The notes beneath the pieces were generated by a model, which saw only the letters and a program-made list of their open reading frames with translations, was not told the origin of the DNA and ran no database searches. DNA of 44,806 nt from a virus, in the IMG/VR virus record IMGVR_UViG_3300045988_038198, positions 1-44,806 of that record. The stretch is one strand, 5' to 3'. Position numbers and translations under genes: made by a program. Positions 1,526 through 43,764 of this stretch are shown piece by piece (position 1 is the stretch's first letter; every line of letters starts with the position of its first letter).

Positions 1526-1854
1526 TGAGTAAAATAGGAATAGAACTACCGAAAGAGTATTCGGATAGATTTGACAAATTGCGTCAGAATCGAGTAGAAG
1601 TCAGCTTTTACAAATATGGCACAGCAGCAGACAACTTTGGAATGAAATTAGTAGATGCACTTGAATCACACGATATGTGCATTAAAAAATATAAAGAAAC
1701 TGGAAACACAGAATATCTTTGCGATGCAGCAAATTATCTCATGTTTGAATTTATGTATCCACAGATTCCGAATGCATTTTTCAAAGCAACAGATAGCGGA
1801 GAGAGTGCCGGAGTTGCCGGGACGCCAATAAATCAGCTAAAAGAAAAATGGTGA
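1525..1854 (+). CDS. Hypothetical protein (109 aa)
   Basis: The ATG at 1525 overlaps the terL stop (TAATG). ORF-track ORF 1498..1854 was trimmed to that ATG. No confident motif. Confidence 0.6.
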   Translation: MSKIGIELPKEYSDRFDKLRQNRVEVSFYKYGTAADNFGMKLVDALESHDMCIKKYKETGNTEYLCDAANYLMFEFMYPQIPNAFFKATDSGESAGVAGTPINQLKEKW

Positions 1855-1858
1855 CTAA

Positions 1859-3346
1859 ATGGGACTTATAACAACACTAAAAAGGTGGTTTAACATGATA
1901 TTCAAAAAACAAGCCGAAGAGGATTTTAATATCCAGGCGGCAGAATTTCCAGAAATGGAATCACTGATTAACCGGTGCGCGAACATTTACAGAGGAGTTC
2001 CGGAATGGTTAGACGACAAGAATAATATCAAGACGATTAATTTTGCAAAATCTGTGTGTTCTGAGACTGCCAGACTTGCAACACTGGCGATTGGCATTCA
2101 GATAGATGGTTCTGCAAGGGCAACATGGTTACAGGAGCAGATTGACAAGGTATATTTTCAAATCCGGCACTGGGTAGAATATGGCTGTGCTTACGGAACA
2201 GTGTTCATTAAGCCAAACGGTGAGAGCCTTGACATATTCACTCCGGCAGATGTGATGATTGTGGATTACGACAATCAGGAGATCAAAGGGATTATATTCA
2301 AGGATTCTTATACTGTTGGACGAAAATACTACACAAGGCTCGAATATCATAGATTTGTTGAGACTACAATAGATGGTGTGACAACTTATCCGTATTATGT
2401 TTCTAACAGAGCCTATGTATCAAAATCTCCTCAAAGCATCGGAGACAAGATTGACCTTAAACAGACAAAGTGGGCTGACCTAATGGCAGACACTCCGCCG
2501 ATTATTAAGGCGAACGGTGAGAAGCTGGACGGGCCTCTGTACGGAGTACTGCGGACACCGCAGGCTAACAATGTGGATATTAGCACGCCACTGGGACTTC
2601 CGATATTTGCGGAAGCTATAGAAGAATTAAAAGACCTGGACATTGCATACAGCCGAAATGCAAAAGAAATCCTTGATTCTAAGCGGACTGTTCTAGCAGA
2701 TGACAGATTGTTGATGCCGAGTGGTTCACCTGTCTCCGCTATGACACCACAGGCAATGGAACATAGATGTTCAGAAATGAGCTTGCCGGATTATGTAAAA
2801 AATGTATTCGGACAGGATGAAAAAGAGTTTTACAAGGAAATCAATCCAATTCTCAACACAGATACCCGTATAAGCGGCATAAACGCCATTTTAAGCCAGT
2901 TAGGGTACAAGATTGGATTCTCCAACGGGTACTTTGTTTTTAATGAAAAAACCGGTATGGTGACGGCTACGCAGGTAGAAGCAGACGACCGACGGACAAT
3001 CCAGTTGATTAAGGATGTTAGAGATAAGCTAGAATGTTGCTTGAATGACACTATATACGCCCTAAATACATTTGCAGATTTGTATGGCATTGCACCAGAT
3101 TCTAACTGGATTTACGACGAAAAGAAAAAGAAATATGTCCAGTATATAGTTAATTATGATTTTGGCGATTTTACATACAACAGAGAAGAAGACAGGATGG
3201 CGTGGTACAGTTATGTAAATTCCGGGCATGTAGCATTTTGGCGTTATTTGATGAAATTTTATGGATATACCGAAGAGGAAGCAAAAAAAATTTCACAAGA
3301 AGCCAAAGAGGAAAACAAAACGAGAGGTTTTTTTGAAGAAGAGTAA
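1859..3346 (+). CDS. Portal protein (SPP1 gp6-like size and position)
   Basis: A 495-aa ORF immediately after the terminase and before the MuF-like gene. Confidence 0.8.
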   Translation: MGLITTLKRWFNMIFKKQAEEDFNIQAAEFPEMESLINRCANIYRGVPEWLDDKNNIKTINFAKSVCSETARLATLAIGIQIDGSARATWLQEQIDKVYFQIRHWVEYGCAYGTVFIKPNGESLDIFTPADVMIVDYDNQEIKGIIFKDSYTVGRKYYTRLEYHRFVETTIDGVTTYPYYVSNRAYVSKSPQSIGDKIDLKQTKWADLMADTPPIIKANGEKLDGPLYGVLRTPQANNVDISTPLGLPIFAEAIEELKDLDIAYSRNAKEILDSKRTVLADDRLLMPSGSPVSAMTPQAMEHRCSEMSLPDYVKNVFGQDEKEFYKEINPILNTDTRISGINAILSQLGYKIGFSNGYFVFNEKTGMVTATQVEADDRRTIQLIKDVRDKLECCLNDTIYALNTFADLYGIAPDSNWIYDEKKKKYVQYIVNYDFGDFTYNREEDRMAWYSYVNSGHVAFWRYLMKFYGYTEEEAKKISQEAKEENKTRGFFEEE

Positions 3347-3412
3347 TGAGATTAGAGCAATGGTTAAAGAAGCCCAGCCAGACGAGCCGAAACTGTTTGG
3401 AGATGAGTAATT

Positions 3413-4642
3413 ATGTTAAGCCCAGAATATTTACGCCGGATAACAGAGGGCAGTGAGCAGATTGCGGAAGAACTGCATCAATATATCATCTCTGAGATCG
3501 TGTCTCGAATGATGACAAGAATCGGCAGAGGTGAGGATTATATTCTGACTAATGCCGATGCGTGGAGAATCAGAACGCTACAGGAATCTGGTGAGCTGCT
3601 AGAGGACATTCTGGCAGAATTATCCAGATACACCAAACGCGAACAGCAGGAACTCCTTGAAGCGTTTGAAGATGCCGGTATCACTGCGATGAACTACGAT
3701 GATAAGATATACAAAGCGGCAGGATTAAGTCCCGTACCGCTCGAACAGTCTCCAGCTATGATAAGACTCATGGAGCGAAATATGCTTGCTACAATGGGAG
3801 AATGGCGGAACTTCACAAGGGCAACTGCAAATGTGGCTCAAAGGCTTTATATTGAGCAATGCGACCTTGCATACAATCATGTGATGACTGGAGCAGTTGG
3901 GTATACGCAAGCCATCAAAGAGGCGGTTAATAACGTTGTGAGTGATGGTGTTACGGTCACATATCCATCTGGCAGAAAAGACACGATCGAAACAGCAGTC
4001 GCACGTTCTGTCAGAACTGGTGTGGCACAGGCTACTGGAGATATATCCCTCAAGCGCATGGAAGAAATGGACTGGGATTTAGTTCTGGTCAGTGCTCACA
4101 TGGGAGCCAGAACAGGTGACGGCGGTGAGAACCCGGGAAATCACGCATGGTGGCAAGGAAAGATATACTCTCGTTCTGGCAAGAGCAAGAAATTTCCGCC
4201 ATTCTCATTGACCGGATACGGAACGGCAAGTGGATTGTCAGGGGTCAACTGTCGGCATAGTTTTGGAGCCAGTGATGGAGAATTTAATCCCTATACAGAA
4301 CTATCAGCGCAGGACAAAGCCAACAAAGGTAAACAGTACGAAAAAGAACAGCGACAGCGCACTTATGAGCGAAGAATCCGAAAAACAAAGCGTGAAGTCC
4401 TTGGAATGCAAGCGGCGGTTGATAACTGCAAAGACGAACAGGCAAAATTCGCATTACAGCAAGACCTTGACCGGAAGTCTTATCTTTTGCAGAAACAAAA
4501 TGCTGCATACAAGGAATACTGCAAGCAGAATGATCTAAGAGAGCTGCAAGACCGACTTATGATAGCTAAATGGAACCACCAGAATGCTGCAAAAGTTAGA
4601 GGAGCGGCAAAGAGATATAAAACAGCAAAGGGGATTGACTGA
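3413..4642 (+). CDS. Head morphogenesis / minor capsid protein, Mu F / SPP1 gp7 family
   Basis: Position after the portal gene, the conserved GVNCRHS motif, and a K/R/Q/E-rich coiled-coil tail. Confidence 0.8.
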   Translation: MLSPEYLRRITEGSEQIAEELHQYIISEIVSRMMTRIGRGEDYILTNADAWRIRTLQESGELLEDILAELSRYTKREQQELLEAFEDAGITAMNYDDKIYKAAGLSPVPLEQSPAMIRLMERNMLATMGEWRNFTRATANVAQRLYIEQCDLAYNHVMTGAVGYTQAIKEAVNNVVSDGVTVTYPSGRKDTIETAVARSVRTGVAQATGDISLKRMEEMDWDLVLVSAHMGARTGDGGENPGNHAWWQGKIYSRSGKSKKFPPFSLTGYGTASGLSGVNCRHSFGASDGEFNPYTELSAQDKANKGKQYEKEQRQRTYERRIRKTKREVLGMQAAVDNCKDEQAKFALQQDLDRKSYLLQKQNAAYKEYCKQNDLRELQDRLMIAKWNHQNAAKVRGAAKRYKTAKGID

Positions 4643-18672: not shown

Positions 18673-19053
18673 ATGGCACAACAGGAACAGTTTAAAATAG
18701 ACAATGTTGTTATAAGAGCACCGGATAGTTACAAACCGGTGTTCGCAACCACTTCTACGGAAGACTCTAAAAGAAGTCAGGATTTAATCATGCATAATAC
18801 ACCAATGGGAACAATTGGCGGGTATGACATGCAATGGGGCGAACTTACGTGGACTGAAATAGCAACCATACTAAATACTGTACTTAACAAAAGTCAATTC
18901 ATATTCCACCATAAAGACCCAACTGTTCCGGGAAGATGGGTAGACAGAACATTCTACGCATCAAATTTTAACATGGCTGCACAAACTCTGAAAGATGGGG
19001 AAGAAAAATGGACAGATTTGTCTATCAATGTAAGGAGGATTGAGCCGATTTGA
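18673..19053 (+). CDS. Small distal-tail-like protein
   Basis: Position immediately after the tape-measure gene. RBS is AAGGAG. Confidence 0.45.
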   Translation: MAQQEQFKIDNVVIRAPDSYKPVFATTSTEDSKRSQDLIMHNTPMGTIGGYDMQWGELTWTEIATILNTVLNKSQFIFHHKDPTVPGRWVDRTFYASNFNMAAQTLKDGEEKWTDLSINVRRIEPI

Positions 19054-26515: not shown

Positions 26516-26538
26516 GTTAGTCACAGTTAGTCACAAAT
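26516..26538 (+). repeat. Tandem GTTAGTCACA GTTAGTCACA AAT overlapping the int stop codon
   Basis: Read directly. It encodes the VTNCD* end of the integrase on the - strand. Confidence 0.8.
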
Positions 26539-27698
26539 GGGACTTTTATTTTCTCAATCTCTGTGCGGAGTTCTTCCAATGTCCTGTGTCCATATACCGC
26601 GTTTGTAACATCTCCACCAAAAGAGTGACCCAGCATTCGCTTCCGGTCGTTCTCCCGGACGCCGTATTTTTCACATAACATAGAAAAAGTATGCCGGCAG
26701 TCGTGTGGCGTGTGTTTCGGATCGCCAACAATTCCAAGACGTTCAAGCGTAGGATAGAACAGGGCGTTGCGGTGGTGCTGCTGAGTATATACACAGAGCT
26801 TCCCACCTTGAGTAAGAACCTTTTGCTTAGCAAATTCGTATACCGCCGAATGAATTGGTACTACGCGGTCTTTTCCTGCCTTAGTCTTGATCCCGCCCTG
26901 AAAGTATCTCTCTTCCAAGTTAGTCGTCAACTTAAGTACTTCGCCGATTCTCCAGCCAGAATAACACATGATTAATATAAGCTGCACTTCCGGATCAGCA
27001 GAATTCTTCCAGAGAATTTTTAACTCATTGTCAGAAAATGGTGTTCCATGTTCAGTGTCGTCATCCGCGTTGACTTTTACATACAAAGCCTTGTTTTCTG
27101 TTACAATTTCTGAGTAAACAGCGTATTTATACATCTGCTTGAACAGCGTAAGAATTGCCATAAGGCTCTGACGTTTTAACGGGCAGTCATCAATTACCTT
27201 TTGCAGATCAGGCGCTTTTAAATCCTCGAATACACGATTATACAGAGCCGTGCAGTTTGAGTAAGCGGTCTGGTAAGCTATCTTTGAACTATAAGAAAGT
27301 TTTGAACCCTCTGGAAACTTCCATGCGTAAAACTTCTTATATACCTCTGAAAACGTCAATTTCTTGATTTCCGGGTGTTTATCCTCGACACCCTTGATTG
27401 TATTGTAGTCAGCAATCAAACGAGTAACAAGGGTATCTACGTCCGTTGTAGGTGATATCTCAAGGTCTCGTTCCATCCCTGGCTGATATGTTCCTGCCTT
27501 GTATGCGGTCAGTACAGTAAATCCTTTAATCCAGTCGTCTACATAGCAGATTGCAGGCGGTCGGACGGGCTTTCCGGTCTTTTCATTCAGTACTGCCGGA
27601 GGATGGACCGCAAATGGATTCCTACGGTTGCCGCCCAGGTACCGTATTGTTCCGAAACTGTTAGGGAGCTTCGGGTATTTCTTTCTTTTCTTCGCCAT
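26517..27698 (-). CDS. int: Tyrosine recombinase / integrase (393 aa)
   Basis: MAKKRKKYPKLPNSFG start follows an RBS. Contains HDCRHTF, MLGHSFGG and VYGHRT catalytic-type motifs. ORF-track ORF was trimmed to M48. Confidence 0.85.
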   Translation of the reverse strand: MAKKRKKYPKLPNSFGTIRYLGGNRRNPFAVHPPAVLNEKTGKPVRPPAICYVDDWIKGFTVLTAYKAGTYQPGMERDLEISPTTDVDTLVTRLIADYNTIKGVEDKHPEIKKLTFSEVYKKFYAWKFPEGSKLSYSSKIAYQTAYSNCTALYNRVFEDLKAPDLQKVIDDCPLKRQSLMAILTLFKQMYKYAVYSEIVTENKALYVKVNADDDTEHGTPFSDNELKILWKNSADPEVQLILIMCYSGWRIGEVLKLTTNLEERYFQGGIKTKAGKDRVVPIHSAVYEFAKQKVLTQGGKLCVYTQQHHRNALFYPTLERLGIVGDPKHTPHDCRHTFSMLCEKYGVRENDRKRMLGHSFGGDVTNAVYGHRTLEELRTEIEKIKVPFVTNCD

Positions 27699-27835
27699 TT
27701 TTATTCCCTCTTTCTGTAGCTGTATTTTAGGTATAAAAATAACAGCCGAACAAACTTTCTGACTTGTCCGACTGCTCCGAAGATGATACAATATGTTTTG
27801 CCAGAATATTACATTTCTTCGGAGATGTATAAACG

Positions 27836-27876: not shown

Positions 27877-28920
27877 TTAATTAACGGTTACATTGAATAT
27901 AGCTGAATATTTGTCTGAATCTGAATATCCATTGTCCGAATATTGGTCAACATAAATTTTAAAATTTCCTTTGTGATTTACACCAATACATTCCTGTGCA
28001 CGACATTTAGCACCTACTGGAATCTCTTCAGGGTAATAAGTTGGTGAATTTGGATAAGTGTATCCGGTGTATCCCTGAGAATCAATATATTTGTATAATC
28101 CCAAAGACATATATAGACCGTCAAAATCTGAAGAATGGTATCCAATATTTTCATAGGTGTAATCTACTAAATATACAGCCGCCGGATTAGTACTTGAATA
28201 AGGGTTTCTTTCACTCATTTCAGTAACTGAATTGATTGTGAATTTCCATTGTCCCGGAACTGTCCAAGTCTGCCCCATGTTATATGTTTGAACTGATGGC
28301 CTTGGAGCTGGTGTAGGCTGCACATAAGGTTTTATGACATTTACAGTGGTTACGAATTCCATTGTTGATACCTTTCCCGTTATGGTTGCACAGCCGACTG
28401 ATTTACCATGAATCTTTCCACCAGATGTTATTGATACAATGGATGGATTGGAAGAAATCCATTTAACTTTTTGCTTTGTATTGCTGATCTTGAACTGATA
28501 TGATTTGCCTAAGTCAATAACAGAAATGAATTGTTTCCACTTCGGAACTTCTGATGTGAGCTTGCACTTATAAACAGTTCTTCCTTTTTTCGCAGTAATT
28601 ACAGCAGTTCCTTTTTTCTTTGCAGTTACAACGCCTGAGGATGAGACAGAAATACATTTCTTGTTGGAACTTGTCCATTTGTATCCTTTTCCCGGCCCTT
28701 TGAATTTAGCTTTTTCTGATTTTAAAATGTATGCAGTTACTGTTTTGCCTTTTTTCAAAGTGATCGGGGTTCGGTATGAATAGTATGTAGGTGCTATGTT
28801 CTGATTCCCTCCGGTATTGGTTCCATCCCCGAACTCACTTGCCATCGCCGGTATGCTGCATAATAGCAAACATAGCATGAGCAAAAGTGAAATTACTTGT
28901 GAAAATCGTTTCTTCTTCAT
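27877..28920 (-). CDS. Secreted/surface protein: signal peptide, two Big_2-like Ig domains and a C-terminal beta-sandwich (DUF4352-like); lysogenic-conversion moron
   Basis: Starts MKKKRFSQVISLLLMLCLLLCSIPAMA. Contains WTSSNKKCISVSSSGVVTAKKKGTAVITA and WISSNPSIVSITSGGKIHGKSVGCATITG. Confidence 0.7.
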   Translation of the reverse strand: MKKKRFSQVISLLLMLCLLLCSIPAMASEFGDGTNTGGNQNIAPTYYSYRTPITLKKGKTVTAYILKSEKAKFKGPGKGYKWTSSNKKCISVSSSGVVTAKKKGTAVITAKKGRTVYKCKLTSEVPKWKQFISVIDLGKSYQFKISNTKQKVKWISSNPSIVSITSGGKIHGKSVGCATITGKVSTMEFVTTVNVIKPYVQPTPAPRPSVQTYNMGQTWTVPGQWKFTINSVTEMSERNPYSSTNPAAVYLVDYTYENIGYHSSDFDGLYMSLGLYKYIDSQGYTGYTYPNSPTYYPEEIPVGAKCRAQECIGVNHKGNFKIYVDQYSDNGYSDSDKYSAIFNVTVN

Positions 28921-29035
28921 AAAATCCCTCCTATTATATGATTTTCACCACGTTTCGCACTTTCCATGCGGATTATGTATTTTGTACCGCTGATTTTGCA
29001 ATGTTATGTAAAGTACGGTTATTCGTGGTATTTTT

Positions 29036-29064
29036 ATTTTATCATTTTAAGAGCATATTGTAAA
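29036..29064 (-). promoter_or_regulatory. Candidate promoter of the moron, TTTACA-17-TAAAAT
   Basis: On the + strand, tgtaaa is at 29059..29064 and atttta at 29036..29041. Confidence 0.45.
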
Positions 29065-29149
29065 GATTTAGAACGAAATAGAGTGATTTAGATGAAAAAG
29101 AAATGTTTTTTTCTATAAAATAGTGAGAGTTCATGTATATCATTGGCAG

Positions 29150-29178
29150 TTGCCAAGAGTCGGAATAGGTGGTATAAT
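29150..29178 (+). promoter_or_regulatory. Strong promoter TTGCCA-17-TGgTATAAT
   Basis: -35 at 29150..29155, TG at 29170..29171, -10 at 29173..29178. Confidence 0.7.
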
Positions 29179-29186
29179 AGCAAAAG

Positions 29187-29200
29187 CGAACTAATGTTCG
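29187..29200. promoter_or_regulatory. LexA/DinR-type SOS box CGAACtaatGTTCG
   Basis: Perfect match to the CGAAC-N4-GTTCG core, 9 nt downstream of the -10. It is the only such site in the window. Confidence 0.6.
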
Positions 29201-29266
29201 GTTCTATTTCCCACAGCCGAACATATACTGTAGTGTAGGCGGTAGTTACGACAGGGAGGGTTATTT

Positions 29267-29383
29267 ATGGATTATAAGAAAGAGATTATTGAAATGATAG
29301 AAAAATGTGATAATGAGGGCAAGTTAAAATTTGTCTATACGATTCTTATCAAATATCTAAAATCAAAGAAGCAAGGGGATTAA
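29267..29383 (+). CDS. 38-aa ORF downstream of the SOS-box promoter
   Basis: RBS AGGGAGGG lies 6 nt before the ATG. It translates to MDYKKEIIEMIEKCDNEGKLKFVYTILIKYLKSKKQGD. Confidence 0.5.
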   Translation: MDYKKEIIEMIEKCDNEGKLKFVYTILIKYLKSKKQGD

Positions 29384-29390
29384 CCCTTGC
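29371..29390. terminator. Shared bidirectional hairpin GCAAGGG-gattaa-CCCTTGC holding both convergent stop codons in its loop
   Basis: TAA at 29381..29383 (+) and TAA at 29382..29380 (-). T-runs on both sides. Confidence 0.65.
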
Positions 29391-29724
29391 TCTTTTTGTT
29401 TAACGATGAAACTATTTGTTTTATTGCTTTCTTATCTTCTTTATCGAGTGCTTTATATTCCTCGATAAAGTCTAAGACGTCAGGTTCTGACATAAGATTT
29501 CCAATTATGGTTGCATAATCGTCATCGCTTTTAGAACCCATGAGGTATGTCGGTGTTACTTCCAGAGCGCCGCATAGAAGTTCGATAGTGTCCATATCTG
29601 GCTTGCACTTATCTTTTTCCCAGTCACTAATTGAATTGTGTTTTGCGTTGATTTTTTCTGCGAGTTGTTTCTGAGTTAATTTCTTTGCTGTTCTGGCTTG
29701 CTTGATTTTCTCGCCAAATGTCAT
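29380..29724 (-). CDS. cI-like repressor, XRE HTH, 114 aa, no peptidase domain
   Basis: AAGGAGG RBS lies 9 nt before the ATG at 29724. Contains MTFGEKIKQARTAKKLTQKQLAEKINAKHNSISDWE. It is divergent from the cro-like gene. Confidence 0.8.
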   Translation of the reverse strand: MTFGEKIKQARTAKKLTQKQLAEKINAKHNSISDWEKDKCKPDMDTIELLCGALEVTPTYLMGSKSDDDYATIIGNLMSEPDVLDFIEEYKALDKEDKKAIKQIVSSLNKKSKG

Positions 29725-29749
29725 TATCGGTTTCCTCCTTTCATGATTA

Positions 29750-29778
29750 ATAATAATATAGAAATTTCGAACTGTCAA
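29750..29778 (-). promoter_or_regulatory. Leftward repressor promoter TTGACA-17-TATTAT
   Basis: On the + strand, tgtcaa is at 29773..29778 and ataata at 29750..29755. The spacer contains TTCGAA (29766..29771). Confidence 0.6.
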
Positions 29779-29784
29779 TAAAAT

Positions 29785-29805
29785 AATTTCGATTTTCTCG
29801 AAATT
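29785..29805. promoter_or_regulatory. Operator: perfect inverted repeat AATTTCGA-ttttc-TCGAAATT between the divergent -35 boxes
   Basis: Read directly. Related TTCGAA sites lie at 29766, 29817 and 29826. Confidence 0.65.
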
Positions 29806-29810
29806 TATTC

Positions 29811-29839
29811 TTGACATTCGAACATTTCGAAGTTATACT
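29811..29839 (+). promoter_or_regulatory. Rightward early promoter TTGACA-17-TATACT with two TTCGAA palindromes in the spacer
   Basis: -35 at 29811..29816 and -10 at 29834..29839. Confidence 0.7.
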
Positions 29840-29886
29840 GTAATTGTTCGATAAGAACGAAACTTAAATAGAAAGGAGAATTGAAA

Positions 29887-30108
29887 ATGTGTGTTGGTAA
29901 GAAAATCAAGTCATACCTTGAGAATAACGGCATAACACAGACATTCGTTGCCAACAAAACTGGTATTCCTGTTCAGAAGCTCAATCTTTCTCTCAATGGA
30001 AATCGCAAATTAGATTTCGATGAATACGAATTAATTTGTGGAGCATTATCTGTTGGAACCGATAAGTTTCTTGAACCAAGGTTGCCAGAACGGAAGGGAG
30101 CTGATTGA
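29887..30108 (+). CDS. Cro-like XRE HTH protein
   Basis: AAAGGAG lies 8 nt before the ATG at 29887. Contains ITQTFVANKTGIPVQKLNLSLNG. Confidence 0.75.
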   Translation: MCVGKKIKSYLENNGITQTFVANKTGIPVQKLNLSLNGNRKLDFDEYELICGALSVGTDKFLEPRLPERKGAD

Positions 30109-30133
30109 TTGAAACGTAAGGAGGTGAGAATAC

Positions 30134-30355
30134 ATGAAAGAAAAAACAGTTGCAGGACTTACAGACTATGCTTTAGAGATGCTTGGATATGATAAAGAAA
30201 AGATTCTCAAGGCAGTAGAAAATTGCGTAATGGCAATGGGAGAATTGACAATCGCAGAAAGCCAAGTTGCCCGTAAGCATCTGGACTCTGTTATGGAAGA
30301 AATGTATAAGCGGAGTCCAGACACCTTAATAAATACTATTCAGCCTCGTTTATAA
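30134..30355 (+). CDS. Hypothetical early protein
   Basis: AAGGAGGTGA RBS; 73 aa. Confidence 0.6.
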   Translation: MKEKTVAGLTDYALEMLGYDKEKILKAVENCVMAMGELTIAESQVARKHLDSVMEEMYKRSPDTLINTIQPRL

Positions 30356-30581
30356 TCTTATTTTCATGAACGACAAAATTATAAGCATAGTTATAGGCTT
30401 GTACATACTGGTTGGACAGTGACAGTACATCAGAAGAATCAACTTCATCTTCACTGTGCAATTTGGTAACCTGTGCAGTCGCTTTGATATAAGCTGAAGC
30501 AATATTATGTGCAGCCAATTCAGGATTCACAGTACGAATCTTAGCAAGTTCACAGTGGCTTAATCCAAAATTGTCAAACAT
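30336..30581 (-). CDS. Hypothetical protein (leftward island, gene 3)
   Basis: GAAAGGAGG RBS. Own promoter at 30632..30660. Its 3' end overlaps 30134..30355 by 20 nt. Confidence 0.6.
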   Translation of the reverse strand: MFDNFGLSHCELAKIRTVNPELAAHNIASAYIKATAQVTKLHSEDEVDSSDVLSLSNQYVQAYNYAYNFVVHENKIINEAE

Positions 30582-31954: not shown

Positions 31955-32644
31955 ATGAACGAATTGCAGTTTTTTAATTCAGAAGAGTTCGGAGAAATCC
32001 GAACAGCAGAAATTGACGGGAAACCGTATTTTGTTGGCACTGATGTTGCCAAAGCTCTTGGATATAACAATCCCAGAGATGCCGTATCAAGGCATTGCAA
32101 GGGAGTCGTGAAACGCGACACCCCTACATCTAGTGGCATTCAGTCAATGTCATACATAAATGAGGGAGATTTGTACCGCTTGATTATGAAGTCGAAACTT
32201 CCATCGGCAGAGAAATTCGAATCATGGGTTATGGATGAAGTTCTTCCGACAATCAGAAAGACAGGCTCATACCAGAAGCCACTGACGACAGTTGAACAGA
32301 TACAGGTTATTGCGACAGGGTTCTTAGATCACGAAGAACGGCTTAACAGACTTGAAAACACCATGACTATTGACTACGCACAGCAGGAATCTATTAGAGA
32401 CTTAGTGTCAAGTGTCGTAATTGCTCACCTTGGTGGGAAAGAGTCAAATGTTTACAAGGAAATTGGCAAGAAAGTATTTGCTGAATGCAACAGGGATATA
32501 AAGACTTACTTCGCAGTAAATGCCCGTAATAACATCCCTAAGCTGAGATTTGAAGAAGCTATGGAATATGTTAAGAACTGGCATCCATGTACAAATACAG
32601 TAATGTGCATCAGGGACTGCAATGCTCAAATGTGTATTGAGTAG
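31955..32644 (+). CDS. ant: Antirepressor (BRO-N domain plus ORF6C/KilAC-like C-terminal domain)
   Basis: Contains FGEIRTAEIDGKPYFVGTDVAKALGYNNPRDAVSRHCKG. Confidence 0.75.
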   Translation: MNELQFFNSEEFGEIRTAEIDGKPYFVGTDVAKALGYNNPRDAVSRHCKGVVKRDTPTSSGIQSMSYINEGDLYRLIMKSKLPSAEKFESWVMDEVLPTIRKTGSYQKPLTTVEQIQVIATGFLDHEERLNRLENTMTIDYAQQESIRDLVSSVVIAHLGGKESNVYKEIGKKVFAECNRDIKTYFAVNARNNIPKLRFEEAMEYVKNWHPCTNTVMCIRDCNAQMCIE

Positions 32645-33659: not shown

Positions 33660-33845
33660 ATGAGCAGAAATAGCACAAATAAATGTGAAAACGTTCCGGC
33701 ATGGGACGAACTTGAGTTCATTCTTGCGACAGAAATTGTCGAAGAAAGTAGAAAAAAAGCAAGAAAATGGTTCACGACATGGATTGTGACCGCAGCCGCA
33801 CTGGTAGCAAGCAACCTTGCATGGATTATGGGAGAAATGAGATGA
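33660..33845 (+). CDS. Small membrane protein
   Basis: C-terminal TM helix WFTTWIVTAAALVASNLAWI. Confidence 0.5.
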   Translation: MSRNSTNKCENVPAWDELEFILATEIVEESRKKARKWFTTWIVTAAALVASNLAWIMGEMR

Positions 33846-42799: not shown

Positions 42800-43060
42800 A
42801 TGAGCAGACTGATTGATGCAGACAAAATAATTGACTCTCTTGGAAATTCGGATATGGATTTTGCAATAGGTGCAGTTATTGACGAACAGCCGACAGTTTT
42901 TGATGTGGATAAGGTTGTGGAGCAGTTAAAAGATTTAAAGGCAATGTATTGGTTTTCAATAGCAAATACAGGAGATAAAAAACTAGATATTGCTTATGAA
43001 AACGTAGGAAATGCATTAGACAGGGCTATTGAAATCGTAAAGGAGGGTGGAGTTGAATGA
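42800..43060 (+). CDS. Hypothetical protein
   Basis: 86-aa ORF, co-oriented and tightly packed. Confidence 0.55.
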   Translation: MSRLIDADKIIDSLGNSDMDFAIGAVIDEQPTVFDVDKVVEQLKDLKAMYWFSIANTGDKKLDIAYENVGNALDRAIEIVKEGGVE

Positions 43061-43764
43061 GAGAGTTTATACATGGTGACTGTATGAAATATTTACCGGA
43101 TTTTCCGGACAACTACTTTGATATTGCCATAGTAGACCCTCCATATGGAATAAAAGAGCATGGAGGAAAGAATCGAAGTAAATATGTAAAGCAGAAAAAT
43201 GGAAGTTCCATATACGTTCCAGACGGAGGATATAAAAATTTTGGATGGGACAATTCGCCTCCTGAACCTGAATATTTTAAACAATTGTTCAGAGTTTCTA
43301 AAAATCAAATTATATGGGGAGCAAATTATTTTGATTATCCAATGGCTGGCGGGATGATTATATGGGATAAATGTAATGATGGTTCTGACCAGTCCGATGC
43401 AGAAATTGCGTTCAACAGCCTAACAAGAAGAGTAGATATATTCAGATACATGTGGAGAGGAATGTTTCAGGGGAAATCAATTGCTGAAGGAACTGTTCAA
43501 CAAGGAAATAAGAAATTAAATGAAAAGAGAATTCATCCAACACAGAAGCCAGTAAATCTGTACAGGTGGATTTGCCAGAAATATCTGCAGAAAGGAATGA
43601 TGGTGCTTGATACGCATGTGGGGAGTGCAAGCTCATTGATTGCCTATGAAGAATACGGACTTGAATATATAGGGTATGAAATTAATGAATGTTATTACAA
43701 TGACGCTTGCAAACGGTTAGAAGAATTTAGATCACAGATTACATTATTTGATTTAGGAATGTAG
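43057..43764 (+). CDS. Orphan DNA methyltransferase (N6A/N4C, beta-class order)
   Basis: Contains IVDPPYGI, then HPTQKP, then DTHVGSASS. No adjacent endonuclease gene. Confidence 0.8.
   Translation: MREFIHGDCMKYLPDFPDNYFDIAIVDPPYGIKEHGGKNRSKYVKQKNGSSIYVPDGGYKNFGWDNSPPEPEYFKQLFRVSKNQIIWGANYFDYPMAGGMIIWDKCNDGSDQSDAEIAFNSLTRRVDIFRYMWRGMFQGKSIAEGTVQQGNKKLNEKRIHPTQKPVNLYRWICQKYLQKGMMVLDTHVGSASSLIAYEEYGLEYIGYEINECYYNDACKRLEEFRSQITLFDLGM

Follow-up and report, generated by a model that had tools for sequence, protein, structure and literature searches.

A putative SOS-induced antirepressor peptide encoded tail to tail with the repressor gene in temperate phages of gut Lachnospiraceae

A small convergent gene behind a LexA-type box

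The window analysed here is the complete viral record IMGVR_UViG_3300045988_038198 (positions 1 to 44,806; 44,806 nt), which by its open reading frame (ORF) and domain content represents a whole temperate phage genome. Its lysogeny module contains a 38-codon gene that is transcribed from behind a candidate LexA box and converges on the gene of a short cI-like repressor with a helix-turn-helix (HTH) domain; this small gene, its peptide product and its relatives in other phages are the subject of this report. The switch region consists of the following features:

29150..29178, plus strand: sigma-A type promoter with extended -10 region, TTGCCA (29150-29155), 17-nt spacer, TGg and TATAAT (29170-29178)
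29187..29200: candidate LexA box of the Cheo/DinR type, CGAACtaatGTTCG, which starts 9 nt past the -10 region and spans the expected transcription start
29201..29266, plus strand: 5' leader with CCGAAC (29217-29222) and the Shine-Dalgarno (SD) sequence GGGAGG (29254-29259), 7 nt before the ATG
29267..29383, plus strand: ORF of 38 amino acids (aa), MDYKKEIIEMIEKCDNEGKLKFVYTILIKYLKSKKQGD, a putative SOS-induced antirepressor with a conserved N-terminal and a class-specific C-terminal helix
29370..29400, both strands: bidirectional intrinsic terminator, hairpin GCAAGGG-gattaa-CCCTTGC (29371-29390) with T-runs on both strands
29380..29724, minus strand: cI-like repressor of 114 aa, Xre-type HTH (residues 1-62) and three-helix C-terminal domain (67-112), HTH_3 as sole Pfam family
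29750..29839, divergent: repressor and cro promoters, TTGACA-17-TATTAT (29778-29750, minus strand) and TTGACA-17-TATACT (29811-29839, plus strand), with TTCGA-type operator repeats
29887..30108, plus strand: Cro-like HTH gene of 73 aa (HTH_26/HTH_3), first gene of the early rightward operon

Upon re-reading of the sequence, the promoter, the box, the CCGAAC motif, the ORF, the shared hairpin and the two stop codons in its loop were all recovered where the initial annotation had placed them. The promoter of the small ORF is the top consensus match within 28700-30500 (11/12, with the TG extension present) and is kept in the largest group of related loci. At the opposite end, the TAA of the small ORF (29381-29383) and the stop codon of the repressor gene on the minus strand (the complement of 29380-29382) are both situated in the hairpin loop, and in the window these genes share 4 nt. 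The box had been described as the only such site in the window, which holds for the exact 14-mer CGAAC-N4-GTTCG, found once versus 0.01 times expected (1/100 shuffles), and does not hold for the shorter core GAAC-N4-GTTY, found six times versus three expected and hence at chance level. The further 12-mer cores are all located within ORFs, at 18733-18744 in an ORF of the tail region, at 33708-33719 in a 61-aa ORF (33660-33845) and at 43279-43290 in a methylase ORF (43057-43764).

The alternative pairing of GTTCGG with CCGAAC that had been suggested for the RNA leader is possible and is kept in 92% of cells in 24 relatives, but it is accompanied by no compensatory change and does not rise above shuffled sequences. 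Equally, RNAalifold gave -2.9 kcal/mol with zero compensatory pairs for a leader structure or riboswitch, and no Rfam family was found for the leader. The leader of about 65 nt (tatttcccac...catatactgtagtgtaggcggtag...gggaggg) is kept in about 70 loci even across differing promoters, and its TTTCCC stretch could pair with the SD sequence.

The AlphaFold2 (AF2) model of the repressor, built on a 44-sequence alignment (predicted local distance difference test, pLDDT, 89.1), displays five HTH helices followed by helices at 67-78, 81-91 and 95-112. That this 114-aa HTH protein has no S24-type domain, as initially annotated, was borne out by Pfam, and neither the window nor 1.36 Mb of related loci yielded an S24-like protein in tblastn with LexA; a lexA gene was likewise not found in those loci. 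Proteases of the M78/ImmA type are absent among the neighbours and the scanned ORFs of the window. The best sequence match of the repressor in PDB is the N-domain of ImmR, others being SinR/SinI (1b0n) and the phi106 repressor-AimX complex (9sf2). The repressor profile matches the phi106 repressor (9sf2_A; E 4e-7) in the HTH only (residues 4-70), while Foldseek aligns the full-length repressor model to SinR of 1b0n over 103 columns.

Conservation, covariation and tandem arrays

Homologous small ORFs were spotted by eye in three of the nearest database phages, and the family was searched in IMG/VR with a degenerate DNA pattern for MDYK[KSRN][EK]II[ED], which retrieved at least 120 loci, 123 matches being listed; L-numbers (L002, L003, L139 and so forth) are the labels of related loci compared with the window. 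Every one of the 123 listed matches opens an ORF of 32-39 aa, and an SD sequence lies at most 20 nt upstream in 117 of them. The ratio of nonsynonymous to synonymous substitution rates (dN/dS) amounts to 0.02-0.15 in eight sequence groups, with variable sites mostly at third codon positions. Because of this ratio and the conserved SD sequence, the small ORF is a real conserved protein gene under purifying selection. The N-terminal 13 residues are near-invariant across all cassette classes, with synonymous variation of codons 2-9. As the pattern forces the first nine residues and thereby introduces an ascertainment bias, repressor homologues were used as an independent entry, which partly lifted this bias: homologues with 55% and 65% identity, found without the peptide pattern, also carry convergent family members, the N-termini of which (MEYKDEIKKLINSIEN..., MNYKEEIIKKVNSIES...; MEYKDEIKK..., MNYKEEIIKK...) are related to the pattern but differ from it.

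The AF2 model of the peptide consists of two helices, 3-16 and 20-34 (pLDDT 86.6), and the peptide is charged and amphipathic, unlike a hydrophobic membrane peptide. It has no family in Pfam or PHROGs and no match among PDB chains including AimX with E values up to 10, and no description of the family was found in the literature on the peptide sequence and on LexA or antirepressors in Lachnospiraceae. The exact peptide sequence of the window occurs on 639 contigs with 'hypothetical protein' as sole name, and the five variants that were looked up are each present on 435 to more than 1000 contigs.

One family member, MDYKSKIIELINGISNTAKLEYLYYVIRSFLKG, is located in Ruminococcus gnavus phage phiRg507T2_3 (L003; MT980837.1) at 1696-1797 between gp22 and gp23, where it is unannotated. 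Two LexA-type boxes, likewise unannotated, flank the promoter in this phage, which, as part of a cultured collection, provides a system for experiments.

Conservation of the box was assessed for the 121 listed loci having 160 nt of upstream sequence, with 6368 windows of the same loci as background. A perfect GAAC-N4-GTTC is present at most 160 nt upstream in 91 of the 121 loci (75%) versus nine background windows (0.14%), and GAAC-N4-GTTY or its complement in 105 loci (87%) versus 1.1% of background windows. The box occurs in at least six unrelated promoter layouts, each time at a position competent for repression. In the type of the window it is placed 8-9 nt after the -10 region and in a second type about 11 nt after it, in three types it lies inside the spacer between the -35 and -10 regions (TTGACTatgccGAACacgcGTTCTATAAT, TTGAAAtcGAACgaacGTTCgtaTATAAT, TTGACGtttaaGAACaaatGTTCTATAAT), and in the R. 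gnavus phages two boxes are found, one on each side of the promoter. The arms of the box are fixed and the 4-nt spacer is variable, as expected of a LexA site. In Bacillus and clostridia, LexA has GAAC-N4-GTTC/T as its operator, and LexA of Clostridioides difficile binds the recA site GAACAAATGTTT as determined by surface plasmon resonance (PMC4234289); equally, the LexA motif has been treated as conserved across gut Firmicutes (PMC3998124).

The association of the small ORF with the repressor gene is tight, as the ORF ends at most 50 nt from the stop codon of an HTH repressor of 104-130 aa in 106 of the 123 listed loci, while loci of the L023 and L014 types have 0.4-0.8 kb between the ORF and such a repressor, owing to an inserted gene. 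A strong hairpin with flanking A- and T-runs is found at all 55 distinct peptide/repressor junctions in the relatives (55/55; median -17.9 kcal/mol). Upon clustering at 50% identity, the peptide C-half, the C-terminal domain and the HTH domain of the repressor fall into 14 classes each; the classes of the peptide C-half agree with those of the C-terminal domain with an adjusted Rand index (ARI) of 0.99 versus 0.77 for the HTH domain. One cassette is combined with four HTH types, and two cassettes are found for each of four HTH types, as exemplified by the reassortment of L029/L057/L010 against L029/L036. This ARI pattern and the cassette swaps together identify peptide C-half, terminator and repressor C-terminal domain as the recombining unit. 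Among 15 C-terminal-domain classes one three-helix scheme is shared, with one invariant Leu.

The repressor genes are mosaic (L029/L036/L057/L010 and others), with HTH and C-terminal domains swapped at a linker that is conserved, reads ..EEWLRTG.G.MF.. in one superfamily and is equivalent to about residues 60-66 of the window repressor, and a second breakpoint is situated inside the small ORF after about codon 13. Some repressors start at GTG or TTG and are missed by ATG-only calling. The inserted gene in the L023-type phages codes for a 215-aa lipoprotein between small ORF and repressor.

As adjacency alone could give rise to covariation, unlinked copies of the small ORF were sought. In Blautia and Ruminococcus genomes and on one viral contig, 2-5 family ORFs follow one another in tandem arrays that have neither a LexA box nor a repressor gene close by (L139, L022, L125, L128, L140 and L144). 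The peptides of an array differ in their C-terminal class, and each of these classes has its counterpart among the phage cassettes; dN/dS is about 0.1. In L139 (Blautia difficilis M29) the array at 1945-2547 comprises NTGKLRFVYMILFKYLKTKM, VKTEQTLNRVYKLLEYLYLREE, DNICWLRSIYVFMKTLLG, NDDSLLEFFYRFIARVLRNRGY and ADHDQTYTIFRFVCSFLGIK. To judge by their sequences, the arrays look as trans-acting, class-specific antirepressors would, and their location away from repressors under purifying selection argues for action in trans. The L139 array lies directly upstream of a tyrosine integrase gene (2604-3752) in an apparent small element of about 3.5 kb with a ribbon-helix-helix gene, and may be a satellite-like element derepressing several prophage classes. 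Epsilon of the satellite P4 acts on the C repressor of phage P2 and provides a parallel for such helper induction.

A different arrangement is present in L150-L152, where the member MNYKEEIIKKVNSIESSAMLKYIYAVITTYLKSRGF (1842-1952, minus strand) overlaps by 4 nt, at the stop, with a repressor gene whose product has 65% identity to that of the window. Its upstream region harbours no LexA box; a separate HTH gene, a tiny upstream ORF (MVKTKLIT) and a hairpin are found there, which suggests an exchangeable, non-SOS input.

Proposed mechanism and rival explanations

The locus is probably the SOS input of the lysis-lysogeny switch, in which a LexA-repressed peptide would bind the repressor's oligomerisation domain. 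In the lysogen, host LexA bound to CGAACtaatGTTCG just past the extended -10 promoter would, as motif, position and conservation indicate, silence the 38-codon gene. Upon DNA damage, RecA-stimulated cleavage of LexA would allow the promoter to fire, giving rise to a short mRNA terminated at the bidirectional hairpin. The resulting peptide of two helices would then accumulate and bind the three-helix C-terminal, presumably oligomerising, domain of the 114-aa repressor, thereby disrupting the dimers or oligomers needed on the operators and derepressing the cro-like early operon. More speculatively, the N-terminal helix of the peptide may contact the scaffold that the C-terminal domains share, specificity being set by the variable C-terminal helix. 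We infer LexA binding, induction by damage and the contact of peptide and repressor from sequence, the last because of the covariation of peptide C-half and C-terminal domain and because of the analogous AimX-AimC pair. A LexA-gated small effector that supplies the SOS link of the repressor had been proposed from the window sequence, and purifying selection, conservation of the box and the tracking of the C-terminal domain by the peptide C-half lend this proposal support.

Several points weigh against such a switch. Assignment of the box to LexA in Lachnospiraceae is drawn from conservation at the phylum level, and the Bacillus subtilis LexA search listed Bacillus proteins only. Some members of the family have no box (L038, L078, L100, L150-L152 and the arrays). 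Part of the covariation could be linkage within a mosaic cassette, as peptide and repressor genes are adjacent tail to tail; similarity between peptide and repressor C-terminal domain was not detected (cognate versus non-cognate permutation, p 0.35; hhalign probability at most 5.5%); and the strongly conserved N-terminal half could mean a common partner other than the repressor. The last three of these points equally favour the explanation that the SOS-induced peptide is real but has some host or shared factor as its target, for instance modulating LexA or RecA in the manner of gp7 of GIL01, inhibiting cell division or acting as a protease adaptor, with its link to the repressor C-terminal domain due to mere physical linkage. 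It is mainly the near-invariant N-terminal helix, well suited to a common partner, that keeps this explanation alive. On the other hand, the hypervariable, class-structured C-half is hard to square with a single conserved target, as are the arrays of up to five classes, each of which matches a phage cassette class under purifying selection; the charged, amphipathic peptide is not of the membrane type; and the equivalent layout encodes a demonstrated antirepressor in Bacillus phages. A target other than the repressor is consequently judged unlikely.

The effector could also be the RNA or transcription itself, with an antisense RNA or polymerase collision lowering repressor expression and the ORF being incidental. 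An antisense RNA had been offered as an option in the initial annotation, and the convergent orientation and the 4-nt overlap of the genes would suit it; it was also the earlier proposal for aimX in arbitrium phages. However, antisense action is disfavoured because of the bidirectional terminators at all distinct junctions, which limit the overlap to about 20 nt, and because selection acts on the protein, as seen in the dN/dS values and the conserved SD sequence. Furthermore, an extra gene parts the ORF from the repressor in some relatives, and recoded and stop-codon alleles of AimX showed the RNA to be dispensable, which leaves an RNA effector very improbable. The idea that the palindrome serves as a site for the phage repressor rather than for LexA, with the ORF part of the immunity circuit rather than of the SOS response, had been raised as well and draws on the arms CGAAC/GTTCG, which contain the CGAA/TTCG of the operator repeats at 29763-29868. 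The dyads differ, though, in geometry, with CGAA-N6-TTCG in the box versus TTCG-N7-CGAA in the operators, and the invariance of the arms beside a variable spacer also speaks against a phage operator. Above all, L002 has kept promoter and box despite a different repressor and AATTCAAT-type operators, and the box is kept in many other loci; a box that persists beside different phage operators is not the site of the phage repressor, and this explanation retains hardly any probability.

Beyond the proposed SOS switch, the MDYK peptides might serve as exchangeable modules of a code that sets the specificity of prophage induction in gut Lachnospiraceae, with the arrays derepressing several heteroimmune prophages, a tentative proposal that we regard as rather unlikely. 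Docking on the scaffold common to the repressor C-terminal domains would be the part of the conserved N-terminal helix, and the class-specific C-terminal helix would select the repressor class to be inactivated. A phage would have a single cognate peptide controlled by LexA, and the LexA-independent arrays of up to five classes, carried by small elements with an integrase in Blautia and Ruminococcus, would serve satellite-style helper induction or anti-immunity.

Related systems and genomic setting

LexA-controlled antirepressors are a familiar concept, and for this very layout AimX/AimC set a precedent in 2025. The closest system is AimX-AimC-AimL of the 'extended arbitrium' Bacillus phages (phi106, phiW23, BMBtp14; bioRxiv 10.1101/2025.11.23.689978). 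AimX proteins have 29-80 aa; in phi106 the aimX gene follows shortly after a LexA site, converges on aimC and overlaps it. AimX forms a heterodimer with the C-terminal oligomerisation domain of AimC, by which oligomerisation and DNA binding are blocked, with the RNA dispensable (bioRxiv 10.1101/2025.11.23.689978); the complex is PDB entry 9sf2. The 3'-to-3' placement of effector and cI-like gene, initially thought to be unusual, therefore is not, as AimX/AimC of phi106 has the same layout including a LexA site. Common to both systems are a short HTH repressor gene whose 3' end is met or overlapped by a very small convergent ORF, a repressor of HTH and small helical C-terminal domain without a cleavage domain (AimC-type repressors having 80-140 aa), a divergent cro-like gene, antirepressors that diverge in step with the repressors and a LexA-type site just upstream of the ORF, as in phi106. 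Unlike the AimX module, the locus has no AimR/AimP and no ORF for a tetratricopeptide-repeat receptor, with the Big_2 protein and the integrase encoded upstream on the minus strand. The peptide itself is unrelated in sequence to AimX, and repressor similarity is restricted to the HTH. The hosts are gut Lachnospiraceae and not Bacillus, and the peptide combines a conserved N-terminal with a class-specific C-terminal helix. By analogy, the locus most likely works like AimX, though outside an arbitrium module.

The proposed logic is also that of Tum of coliphage 186, of GfoA/GfhA of Gifsy phages (PMC3121763) and of the Sar protein in SPbeta-like phages (bioRxiv 10.1101/2025.11.27.690993), where RecA does not bring about cleavage of the phage repressor, a small antirepressor gene is kept silent by LexA, and damaged DNA induces the phage through protein-protein inactivation of the repressor. 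Proteins and repressor folds are unrelated and gene positions differ, Sar for instance targeting an integrase-like repressor by DNA mimicry (bioRxiv 10.1101/2025.11.27.690993), and none of these antirepressor genes is tail to tail with the repressor gene across a shared terminator. SinI-SinR of B. subtilis (1b0n) likewise pairs an Xre-type HTH repressor with a helical C-terminal multimerisation domain and a small helical antagonist, SinI, which forms a heterodimer. SinI is, however, a homologue of the SinR C-terminal domain, whereas neither protein of the window has a Pfam SinI (PF08671) hit, and SinI-SinR is a chromosomal developmental switch without LexA control, not a phage switch. SinI-like mimicry, with a peptide homologous to the repressor C-terminal domain, was considered and found unsupported by the permutation and hhalign results given above. 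In transcription factor-small ORF (TF-smORF) modules of Vibrio phages, small proteins also inactivate cI-like repressors in response to exchangeable inputs, comparable to the HTH gene upstream in L150-L152; unlike the family described here, these modules are SOS-independent, and their proteins are unrelated and of about 80 aa, with repressors that are still RecA-cleavable (PMC10432266). Two further candidates were rejected, an ImmR/ImmA system of the ICEBs1 type, as an ImmA-type gene is missing and the small ORF occupies the position downstream of the repressor, and a type I toxin-antitoxin or antisense pair, the peptide being a charged amphipathic two-helix peptide and the overlap confined to the terminator.

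New here are the peptide family itself, the gut Firmicutes host clade, the sheer prevalence and LexA as the sole input, as well as the division of the peptide into two differently conserved parts, the exchange of cassettes and the tandem arrays. The AimX type of antirepression would thereby be extended past Bacillus and past arbitrium signalling. Lachnospiraceae (Blautia, Mediterraneibacter/R. gnavus and relatives) are dominant bacteria of the human gut, with prophages that rank among the most prevalent viruses there. Because these repressors have no cleavage domain, there has been, to our knowledge, no described molecular route by which Lachnospiraceae prophages are induced by DNA-damaging drugs, colibactin or inflammation, and the family offers a concrete candidate route from the LexA box via a peptide of 32-39 aa to the repressor's C-terminal domain. 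Although its variants are present on hundreds to more than 1000 contigs, the peptide is called a 'hypothetical protein' or, as in the R. gnavus phage record examined, is not called at all. The natural domain swaps are data on specificity, and MDYKKEII... behind GAAC-N4-GTTC provides a sequence signature by which SOS-inducible gut prophages might be predicted.

The closest database phages of the window are R. gnavus phages and uncultured faecal phages, and among species-representative genomes the family has hosts in Blautia spp., Jutongia, Lachnoclostridium, Ruminococcus sp. and metagenome-assembled genomes of Lachnospiraceae. Outside the switch region, the window contains:

to about 26.2 kb: structural and lysis genes
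26517-27701, minus strand: integrase
27877-28920, minus strand: 347-aa Big_2/DUF4352 protein with signal peptide, between integrase and switch

Early-region genes beyond the switch code for Bro-N/ORF6C, ERF, SSB and DUF927 primase-helicase proteins. The Bro-N and ORF6C protein (31955-32644), of a type usually annotated 'antirepressor', is encoded in the early operon without a LexA box. Moron-like genes for secreted proteins or lipoproteins, to which the Big_2/DUF4352 gene of the window belongs, are also inserted in the lysogeny module of L023, L027, L040, L085, L097 and L123, where they are positioned about 44-692 nt 3' of the small ORF.

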